Virus record (IMG/VR): IMGVR_UViG_3300047678_000160
Location: 1 to 64,000 of that record
Direction: 5' to 3' (one strand)
Origin: a virus
Length of the DNA stretch: 64,000 nt
In this document: positions 48,001-51,000 of the stretch, piece by piece
Layout: each line of letters begins with the position of its first letter
How positions within the stretch are numbered: position 1 is the stretch's first letter
Position numbers: made by a program

Positions 48001-51000
48001 TTATGATGTTATTTCCGTAACAAATGGTGAAGACCGCAAGATTGCCAAGAATTTAAAATTGGAAGATGTTGGAGAGTTCTTGAAGAAGCACGCTGCTGAT
48101 TCGGAGAAGACATATCAACAGAAGGCTTATGACAAATCCAAAAAAGGATTTGGAATTGAAAAGAAAGAAGATAAGAAGAAAGACGAATCTGATAAGATGG
48201 AAGATGTCAAAGAAAAGACCCAAACCGATATTTCTGACAAGACAGATGTTAAGGCTGAAGAGAAGGGTGAAAAAGATTTGGCTCCGGTTGATGATGATTT
48301 GTCAGCACAAATGGGTGGAGAACTTGTTGACAAGATTGAAAGAATCATGGACAAGGTGTTGAAGAGTAAGACCAAGGCAGAAACAAAAACCGCTTATTTG
48401 AAGACAGACAAAGACATGGAAAGCACTGATAAGTTGGCTGTGAAGTTAGACGGAACAAACGCTATTAAAGGTGCTAAGTCTAAAGAGAAGATTACTCCAA
48501 AAGTTAAGGCAGTAGATTCAAAGAAGTGAAAAAATCGGAGCTAAAGTCTCTTATTTTGGAAGTGGTTTCAGAAATATACGGAAATCAGAAGCTCGATGAT
48601 ATTGATATTATCAAGGGTGAGACAATCATTTCGGTCAATCCCAAAGAATATTCTAACGAAGTTTACTTGAATTGTGCAAGTGGAAATGTCTACGAGGTAT
48701 TCGCCTACCCAGACGATAACGCAACGGCGGAAATTTCAGTAGTGAATTTGGATAAAATAATTGGAAAGCCCATCGTTTTTGCTCAACACTCCGACAAAGA
48801 TTCTTATGGCGTTACTTTGATAATGAAAGCGGGTGACGGCAGCATTGGTGAAATTTTGATTAGTTGTGACCATAACGGATATTACGGATTTGAGTATGGT
48901 GTTACCAAAAGAGGTTCGTAGACCGCAAGAAAATTCTTGACATTTGATAAAAAAGACTACATCGTTGGTCTATTAAATCAATTTCGCGTTTGTAGCTCAA
49001 TGGCTGAGCAGTCGTCTCTAAAACGATGGATGTGGGTTCGAGTCCCATCTGACGCACCACTTTCTAATGAAGCATAAAGCAACAATCTCAATCGCCACTC
49101 CGGAGACGGACGCCTTACTCTCCAAAGAGTATGGGGAAAAAGGACATGAGGCGAAGCTTGCTGGTAAGACAAGGGAAGATTGCCCTTATTCCGGCGGCAA
49201 GGTAAGAGATTGGTGGTTAGAAGGTTTTGATGGTATTTCTATGAACACAAATACAAATAGTTAGGTTCCAGATACATAGGCTAAGGTAGATACTACCCTT
49301 AGACGTGTTATAGTTGAAAATATTTTCAACTTTTTTGCGTTTTCTATTTTCTATTCTATACTCATTGGTATGGGAAGAAAATCACTAAATAAGACACACG
49401 AACAAATACTTGAAGAAAATCGTATTCGTTCTGCAAAATATTATTTGCTTCATAAAGAAGAAATAAACAAAAAGACAATGGATAGGTATAACAAGAGAAA
49501 GAAGTTGTCTCTTGAAAATCGCTGATATGAATGTGTATTACGCATATCTCTTGAAGCGGCCCGACGGAACTCCGTTTTATGTTGGAAAAGGAAAAGGTAG
49601 AAGATGTTATGCACACCCAAAACCTTGGCATCTAAAAAAGGATGAAAACAGATATAAAGTTCATATCATAGAAAAAATCCGTCGTGAGGGCCAAGAACCT
49701 ATCATTGAAATACTACAAAATAATCTATCTGAGGAAGACGCTTTTGTGCTTGAAATCCAACAAATAAAACTTTATGGAAGAACTATAAATGGCGGATTGT
49801 TATGCAATATGTCCGTCGGCGGTGAGGGACAATCCGGATTTCACCACAGCGAAGAAACTAAAAGAAAACTTGCTATTATAAGCAAAGAAAATAATGGATT
49901 TGTCGGAAAGAAACACAACGAAGAAACTCTAAAATAATAGGTGATGTAAATAGAGGAAAAGTTCTTGACGATGGGTGGAGAAAGAAACTTAGTGATGCCA
50001 CTAAAGGCAGACCTAAGAGTGAGGAGCATAAGCTAAAAATAAAAAGCGCCCATCTAAATAGAGAAATACCAACGGAACAAAGACAGAGAATGGTAGATAT
50101 GAATAAATCAAGAATCGGAAAATCTCTGAGCAAGGAGCACGGAGAGAAACTCAGCAAGGCTACAAAGGGCGTTTCAAGAGGACCGATGAAGCCAGAAACT
50201 AAAGAAAAATACGACTTGCCAGAATAAAAACATACAAAATATGAACACAGAAAAAATGTAGGACACTACACTAAGAATATACACGCTTTTACGCACTGAC
50301 CTAAATATGGGATGTGGTAAAAGTTGTAGTCAGGCGGGCCACGCTGCCCTCGGAACATTTTTACAGGCCCCAAAGGATTTACAAGACGCCTACCACAAAG
50401 ACGGAATTGGAACGAAGGTATGCTTAGCATGCCCCAATCTATCACAGCTTCAAACGGCATACGAAACTGCCGTTTCATTGGGTTTACCAGCCGATTACAT
50501 CGTTGATTCGGGCTGCCCCGATTTCTTTGGTGGTCAACCCACTCCCACAGCCGTTGGCATTGGTCCTATTACGCGTGCTCAGGCCAAGTTCTTAAAGAAG
50601 TTTCAACTCCTCAAGTAATATGCAAACTATAGTAGAACTAACCCAAATCGTGAACGAAGGTGAGAGTGCCCAAGATTCACTCAATTCAATCGCGGAGTCA
50701 ATCTACGATTTTTATATGGCTGAGATTGAGCGTCAAAAGAAGGAATTGGAAATACAATATCCTTGGTTTGACGAACAGATTTCAGAACTGGAGCGTTGTA
50801 ATTCTGGCTTTCATAAGTATCGATTCTCCGGAAACGACCTTATGCTCATTGGTCGGGATTACTTCCGAGGTGAAACCAACACAGAATATGATTCGCTTCC
50901 TATTGGCGTCTTTATTGACGACCAAGATAAGCGTCATCAATTAATCAAGGATTTTGTCTCTTCTAAGTTCAATGCAATTCACGCACGAATGAAGAAGAAA

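Follow-up and report, generated by a model that had tools for sequence, protein, structure and literature searches.

Duplicated, amber-containing start of a phage pth2 gene around a homing endonuclease module points to invasion of a stop-codon-gated leader

The window analysed here is a stretch of 64,000 nucleotides that opens one virus record of 95,728 bp (IMG/VR IMGVR_UViG_3300047678_000160; 40% G+C). Its plus strand carries a pth2 gene whose start occurs twice, once on either side of a homing endonuclease gene. The gene itself (50241..50618) comprises 125 codons, including one TAG at codon 7, and encodes a predicted peptidyl-tRNA hydrolase: residues 13–123 give a full-length match to the PTH2 family above its gathering score (Pfam PF01981, profile positions 3–114 of 115, E 1.2e-16, 61.4 bits versus a cut-off of 23), and the alignment retains conserved columns of Pth2 including Q24, H27, D82, S83, G84 and T96. 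The downstream start, recognized by sequence inspection and termed replacement leader below (50241..50276), consists of ATG 50241, a TAG at 50259–50261 and the codons for DTTLR at 50262–50276. The upstream start (49241..49303) has ATG 49241, TAG codons at 49262–49264 and 49277–49279, and DTTLR at 49289–49303. Direct inspection thus bears out the sequence-only reading that both copies contain amber codons and that their DTTLR codons differ at third positions only (GAT ACT ACC CTT AGA versus GAC ACT ACA CTA AGA). A gene for a tRNA with anticodon CUA and encoded CCA (48986..49059; ARAGORN, Rfam tRNA 61.8 bits) and an open reading frame (ORF) of 65 amino acids resembling RMF (49067..49264; Pfam PF04957, E 1.9e-6) lie at the upstream copy. 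Between the copies we find the left end of an inserted cassette (49304..49369), a 51-codon ORF of a mobile module (ORF51; 49370..49525), the catalytic part of a GIY-YIG endonuclease with its first NUMOD3 motif (49527..49937) and, in the -1 frame, its C-terminal, DNA-binding, NUMOD3-like part (49925..50227). We consider it probable that this endonuclease module split an amber-gated pth2 leader, leaving the old start upstream and supplying a new start downstream.

The origin of the upstream copy emerges from comparison with relatives. We took 102 related loci from IMG/VR and metagenomes, 89 of them distinct, and extended the pth2 frame upstream in each. The 63 bases of the upstream copy match the pth2 leaders of loci L003, L031/L032, L029 and L039 (blastn-short, E 9e-14 to 1e-6), and its identity to these endonuclease-free relatives is 87–95% over 40–62 bases, with L003 as best match (95% over 42 nt, E 9e-14) and L029 matching at 87% over 62 nt. 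This homology ceases after CTTAGA at 49303. In the endonuclease-free loci L003, L025, L029, L031/L032 and L039 about 8 bases separate the tRNA(CUA) gene from MNTNTNS*VPDT*A.EVDTTLRLYALVR.DL.M..GK, which is the continuous allele that had been predicted for such relatives. Because these leaders align with 49241–49303 almost base for base, the upstream copy is, judged by this alignment, the original pth2 leader, and the shared MNT and DTTLR are no chance match.

The ATG of the old leader at 49241 lies in frame with the RMF-like ORF, and MNTNTNS* forms the last eight codons of that ORF. The match to PF04957 reaches 28.3 bits versus a cut-off of 27.9 and spans just 31 of 53 profile positions; an RMF-like ORF was found in no other related locus. 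Its start context CCACTTTCTAATGAAG copies the start context of the L003 leader, CCACTTTCGTTATGAAC, as if an RMF-like segment had been inserted in frame at the leader ATG with duplication of the start context. The motif TTTCT(A)ATGAA stands on both flanks of the ORF (49057–49246). No stop codon belongs to the RMF-like segment itself: the ORF terminates at the first TAG of the old leader (49264), and its frame remains open through the two TAGs to TGA 49525, including ORF51. Therefore, read-through would extend an RMF-like protein into ORF51.

Directly after 49303 stands TGTTATAGT, an extended -10-like element resembling the -10 of relatives' promoters, within a promoter-like match at 49287–49314. 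It is followed by an AU-rich hairpin (49312–49331; fold z -5.1) and a T run, and from about position 49338 the sequence aligns with what precedes the ORF51 homologues of L104 and L105. ORF51 matches no Pfam or PHROG family; it shares the frame of the old leader, and TGATATG combines its TGA with the overlapping ATG of the endonuclease. In L104 and L105 the ORF51 homologues directly precede GIY-YIG genes, overlapping their start, at unrelated sites, and since the same pair recurs in this way we take ORF51 plus endonuclease as the mobile unit. The endonuclease matches Pfam PF22945 (E 1.2e-7), the NUMOD3 family PF07460 (E 2.8e-7) and the homing endonuclease family PHROG 314 (E 3.9e-14), in agreement with a GIY-YIG/NUMOD3 enzyme, and is 71% identical to an intact gene in L001. 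Presence/absence polymorphism among relatives and mosaic flanks are indirect signs that such an enzyme may cleave the endonuclease-free allele and be copied into it. In IMG/VR, this endonuclease type was found only on the L001 contig and one identical fragment. The intact L001 endonuclease lacks a separate start codon; the frame reaches back through the tRNA gene to an ATG TAG ATG, which sits behind a TTGACA..TATAAT promoter (L001:3150–3300).

In the window the endonuclease frame is broken. Compared with L001 and L027, a single base is missing near 49930, in CTA-AAATAATAGG. Because of this deletion the endonuclease stops at TAA 49935, and the remainder, recognized by tblastn to residues 136–209 of the L001 protein, continues in the -1 frame to 50227. 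The window endonuclease is thus probably decaying. The site itself (49925–49937) reads CTA AAA TAA and contains A_AAA, where a -1 slip of Lys-tRNA would yield T L K I I G D, the L001 counterpart being T L K K I G D; instead of a true deletion, programmed slippage or a sequencing error may underlie the apparent frameshift.

The pth2 gene downstream of the module appears to be a mosaic. Residues 16–45 share 43–60% identity with P0004–P0008, residues 46–118 share 82–85% (Fisher p 0.004 to 5e-5, for a segment of 30 residues and a breakpoint picked after inspection of the data). P0004–P0008 show no such heterogeneity among themselves, and P0002 has the same mosaic as the window. In their 5' part, P0004 and P0006 come nearest to L003 and L029 (23–24 of 30 residues), the clade that owns the old leader type, and the 5' part of the window gene is closest to P0010 (22 of 30). 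The replacement leader together with residues 16–45 resembles this other clade (P0010, L024-like). From these comparisons the tract of about 50262–50396 looks imported or co-converted and the rest of the gene looks like the resident type. Given the mosaic and the L003-type 5' part in the nearest relatives, the cassette most likely brought the new start with it, and on balance we favour that it replaced, in a resident L003-type gene, everything that follows DTTLR up to about residue 45; our confidence in this step is reduced because the breakpoint is post hoc and the 5' segment short. Thus, of the proposal that an endonuclease cassette brought the replacement start, the insertion stands and the import is likely, with the correction that the insertion hit the leader and not the body of the enzyme. 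Local duplication could be considered alternatively, such that the leader was copied in place and diverged, the endonuclease module later came between and nothing was imported. Both copies do share ATGAACACA and DTTLR, and the window, L001 and L027 have replacement leaders without a clear relationship to one another. Still, a copy made in place would not explain why the downstream leader and residues 16–45 belong to another clade while the nearest relatives P0004–P0008 carry an L003-type 5' part like the old remnant, and two leaders without a nuclease between them occur in 0 of the 89 loci. We therefore regard local duplication as unlikely.

Both leaders keep TAG, and so do those of the relatives. 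An in-frame TAG just ahead of the Pth2 domain is present in 85 of the 89 distinct loci, in 75 of these at most 12 codons from the conserved D, and an ATG intervenes between the last TAG and this D in just 2 loci. As many as 62 loci have a tRNA(CUA) gene upstream in the same orientation. The codon preceding TAG is ACG or ACA in 62/85 loci and ACT or ACC in none; G follows TAG in 85%, the next codon being GTT or GTA in 57/85. Nearly all Pth2 proteins of the relatives are called in databases from an internal Met, with 103 amino acids, and the codons between TAG and this Met (D.TLRLYA.VR.DL) are conserved and vary synonymously. Most telling are two loci with other stops: L018 (3306–3520) carries a tRNA(UUA) and the leader GTG AAA TTC ACG TAA GTA ... 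TTC ACG TAA ATC CCC GAC, and L017 (771–848, 3440–3520) a tRNA(UCA) with a TGA leader. In this comparison leader stop and anticodon of the adjacent tRNA change in step (CUA/TAG, UUA/TAA, UCA/TGA), which is the best comparative evidence that the neighbouring tRNA reads the leader stops.

The conservation of TAG in 85/89 loci and the joint change of stop codon and anticodon demonstrate, at the level of comparative sequence, that the amber codons are selected and not errors, as had been proposed. The accompanying statement that the genome otherwise avoids TAG holds as well. TAG is the rarest stop, terminating 12 of 136 ORFs of at least 100 amino acids, and no large ORF of the 95.7-kb genome contains it in frame. 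The amber motif ACR-TAG-G occurs in coding context genome-wide only in the old pth2 leader and in no other gene. Genome-wide recoding of TAG (code 15), with in-frame TAG in many genes, is thus not what we find; the phage is otherwise standard-coded, and the pth2 leader is the sole client found for tRNA(CUA). The tRNA has the structure of an amber suppressor, a cloverleaf with anticodon CUA in which 18 of 20 pairs show compensatory changes among 31 homologous tRNAs, and decoding of UAG by it is predicted from the stop/anticodon covariation. Internal TAGs inside the Pth2 domain occur in L001/L026 (L001:4100–4110) and L009, in the same E/D-rich column, and in L024, in a K-rich column; such internal TAGs of the relatives fall in variable columns and do not allow an amino acid to be assigned to UAG. 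Two other ways of starting translation at the leader stops were considered and rejected. Use of UAG as a start codon by an initiator tRNA disagrees with the G1-C72 pair of the tRNA and with an anticodon stem lacking the run of three G-C pairs, and most leaders carry an ATG upstream of TAG. A GTG or TTG start right after TAG disagrees with the prevailing next codon GTT/GTA, and later Leu codons are mostly CTN.

Stop-containing leaders were also found in cultured jumbo phages. In Sinorhizobium phage Phosso (L108:1380–1545) ATG AAG TAT TAG GTT is in frame with pth2, and in Agrobacterium phage Atu_ph07 (L107:1420–1540) ATG ... TTT TGA ATT is; the deposited pth2 coding sequence begins at the internal Met in both. 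One strict pattern for a CUA tRNA gave no match in these two records. The pth2 genes of XacN1 and RsoM2USA have plain starts, and where Aeromonas and Xanthomonas phages have a similar CUA tRNA, pth2 is not its neighbour.

In 13 loci, representing 11 lineages at a tRNA identity below 90%, no ATG is present between tRNA and pth2. Here, a promoter-like TTGACA...TATAGT, an ATG, 4–17 codons, a TAG, the tRNA, a further TAG and pth2 follow each other in one frame (L005, L006, L010 (3360–3520), L042, L044, L045, L048, L049, L052/L054, L053, L062, L069). This frame contains 0 TAA or TGA in 781 codons, compared with 33 and 36 in the other two frames, and is free of them over 47–140 codons per locus; the upstream TAGGT is in phase with pth2 in 12/12 embedded-tRNA loci. 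Ribosomes would therefore have to cross the unprocessed tRNA precursor. In L048 (3222–3500) and L069 (958–1177) a second tRNA-like stretch, interrupted by about 100 inserted nt, lies in the same open frame between tRNA(CUA) and pth2.

These loci also bear on the possibility that the TAGs are true stops, with Pth2 being a 103-amino-acid protein starting at Met 50307, or pth2 a pseudogene, and tRNA(CUA) being unrelated. That gene callers pick the internal Met everywhere would be in line with this. However, the Pfam match and the protein conservation begin 13–15 codons upstream of Met 50307, and no ATG, GTG or TTG is found in frame between TAG 50259 and Met 50307. Neither the tracking of the adjacent anticodon by the leader stop nor the 13 loci in which the frame is open only from an ATG further upstream of the tRNA would be expected if the leader stops simply terminated translation, and we consider this alternative very unlikely.

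The arrangement seen in the window recurs in relatives. L001/L026 and L027 share its GIY-YIG type between tRNA and pth2, a second GIY-YIG type is present in L033 (1672–2386) and L038 (1917–2623), an HNH enzyme in L008 (3057–3501), and an HNH enzyme on the opposite strand in L085 (2520–2897). By these assignments the tRNA-pth2 junction is a hotspot for at least four kinds of homing endonuclease (two GIY-YIG types, HNH in both orientations). The starts are duplicated in a similar manner. L033 keeps an upstream MNTNTTTV*QDSS (compare the endonuclease-free L035) and has MNTHT*SQSNDPTLRIY downstream; L038 keeps MNTNS*VI (compare L056) and has MNNMNT*VEDKTLRLY; L008 has a piece of the old leader upstream and the new leader MNNTFT*VSD downstream; and L001 has its ATG-TAG-ATG start ahead of the tRNA and a new ATG...TAG leader before pth2. 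In L033, L038, L008 and L001 the nuclease ORF continues the frame of the old leader, uninterrupted by a stop, and in the window ORF51 is the in-frame partner, so that 5 of 5 are in phase (chance about 0.004). We infer that expression of the endonuclease would be coupled to the old leader. A joint interpretation, which we put forward only tentatively, would be that the gated leader is a shared platform on which the tRNA controls both its own maturation and Pth2 output and which at least four nuclease types have repeatedly captured to express themselves.

GIY-YIG genes often reside in phage group I introns. An intron, of group I or another kind, might accordingly carry the endonuclease, with splicing joining the old DTTLR to IYTLLRTDL, and excision of 49304–50276 would indeed leave a perfect continuous allele. 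Yet Rfam gave no match to an intron family at the gathering score, nor at E values up to 10, in 48900–50700, the exon ends depart from the U / omega-G rule of group I introns, and the downstream copy has its own ATG and TAG. Moreover, the old remnants of L033 and L038 end at other points within the same layout, and the pair of ORF51 and endonuclease is free-standing elsewhere. An intron is therefore hardly credible. The description of the cassette as a free-standing GIY-YIG element can be kept, with the amendments that the mobile unit comprises two genes and that its endonuclease is probably decaying. Just as improbable is a mere coincidence, in which 49241–49264 would be the tail of an RMF-like gene with an ordinary TAG stop and DTTLR would be fortuitous: the ATG in frame with that ORF and the lack of a blastn match between the copies would suit it, but not the extended identity of the remnant, both TAGs and spacer included, to pth2 leaders of four phage loci, nor the restriction of the RMF-like ORF to this locus.

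Several observations besides the small, post hoc mosaic test weigh against the proposed split of a gated leader. Within the genome, blastn-short does not match the two copies to each other; they are too diverged for it, so that their resemblance alone could be chance and the case rests on the relatives. The endonuclease-free alleles belong to other lineages than that of the window, and its closest relatives, P0002–P0008, whose Pth2 is 72–87% identical, were compared as proteins. No clear resemblance links the replacement leaders among the three loci that carry this endonuclease type, and the new leader (ATG TAG GAC) lacks the consensus ACR-TAG-GTW context. The phase of ORF51 with the old leader would, taken for the window alone, arise by chance in about 1 in 3 cases. 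As to the residue inserted at UAG, the discriminator bases vary among the tRNAs.

Considering both sides, we propose the following course for the split of the amber-gated leader. Judging from the relatives, the ancestor would have had the tRNA(CUA), about 8 bases, an ATG, 6 codons, a TAG, 4 codons, a second TAG and 3–4 codons running into pth2. Since the leader with its in-frame TAGs runs into the gene, full-length Pth2 would be made only upon read-through of UAG, most plausibly by the suppressor tRNA of the phage itself. An RMF-like coding segment may then have entered in frame at the leader ATG. In a second step the mobile module, with promoter-like -10, hairpin, ORF51 and GIY-YIG/NUMOD3 endonuclease, would have entered at 49303/49304, after the R of DTTLR. 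On its right side it would have brought along another ATG...TAG leader as well as about the first third of pth2, and the crossover on that side would lie in the conserved block coding for GIGTKVCL, which would correspond to the co-conversion of flanks usual in endonuclease homing. As a result of the imported leader, pth2 would retain a start codon and an amber gate. The orphaned old leader could feed ribosomes, after UAG read-through, into ORF51, whose stop overlaps the endonuclease start. Later, the endonuclease would have lost its DNA-binding half by the 1-base deletion, as expected for decay after fixation. The balance of charged suppressor tRNA and release factor would set Pth2 output, and a leader with two UAGs could respond with a steeper threshold. 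One conceivable tie between Pth2 and suppression may lie in the recycling of peptidyl-tRNA from ribosomes that read through host stops. The invading module would thus inherit the old gate itself and keep a gate for pth2 via the new leader.

Elsewhere in the genome, the DUF7448-like gene upstream of the tRNA (48526–48921) terminates in TAG, and its frame is open through the tRNA gene to TAA 49075, inside the RMF-like ORF, which could be chance. A release-factor-like ORF of 201 amino acids (21262–21864) matches only the end of the PCRF domain and the RF-1 domain; this truncated ORF could bear on the handling of stop codons by the phage. A further 29 tRNA genes are arrayed at 91013–95532 of the same record, beyond the window. 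Among them are two genes for tRNA-Thr(UGU), which reads the ACR codon in front of leader TAGs, and a tRNA-like sequence at 91799–91874, the second with anticodon CUA, that has a poor acceptor stem and no CCA.

We found no paper in the literature on an amber-led pth2 or on a duplicated start around a free-standing endonuclease. Free-standing homing endonucleases are known from T4-like phages, where seg and mob genes spread by intronless homing; mobE splits nrdA in Aeromonas phage Aeh1, and F-CphI adjoins a psbA intron. As in these cases, the window has a GIY-YIG/NUMOD3 gene outside an intron, beside or inside a conserved gene, with flanks that look co-converted and a nuclease gene that probably decays afterwards. 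Unlike them, the window nuclease would occupy a 5' leader that is itself translated, continuing the frame of the old start, and downstream of it stand a regenerated start and a stop-codon gate for the host gene. Early in-frame stops are likewise known from prfB, the gene of RF2, which is autoregulated via an early in-frame UGA. Both leaders would tie output to the balance between termination and alternative decoding, but prfB uses a +1 frameshift, whereas pth2 would use read-through by an adjacent dedicated tRNA, and its product is not a release factor.

Stop-codon recoding with phage-encoded suppressor tRNAs has been described for code 15 phages (bioRxiv 10.1101/2021.08.26.457843), without mention of a hydrolase. 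The window shares with them a phage tRNA(CUA) and an in-frame TAG in a phage gene, and also holds a truncated release-factor gene; it differs in that its genome is otherwise standard-coded with only the pth2 leader found as client. A synthetic coherent feed-forward loop in which a suppressor tRNA and a target with N-terminal amber codons are co-switched is described in PMC7969014. This loop is engineered, whereas the pth2 case is natural and in some relatives has the tRNA inside the gated frame. The authors of the report on Xanthomonas phage XacN1 found no targets for its CUA tRNAs (PMC5852040). Like the phage of the window, XacN1 uses the standard code and carries both CUA tRNAs and pth2; unlike the window, its pth2 has a plain ATG start without a stop, and gated leaders are seen in Phosso (TAG) and Atu_ph07 (TGA).

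The locus offers a natural before/after pair for a gene that was invaded at its translated 5' end by a free-standing homing endonuclease and not destroyed, and the outcome appears repeatable across relatives: the invader re-uses the old start and the host gene gains a new one. If the joint interpretation is true, each capture would have left a fresh start and stop gate for pth2, and such start duplication would let a free-standing nuclease settle within the 5' region of a gene. That one genome holds two diverged leaders, both of which keep TAG, is internal evidence that the early pth2 stops are functional. In conclusion, the puzzling suppressor tRNAs of standard-code phages would gain a concrete client gene in pth2, and Phosso with its TAG leader and Atu_ph07 with its TGA leader make the gating testable in cultured phages.

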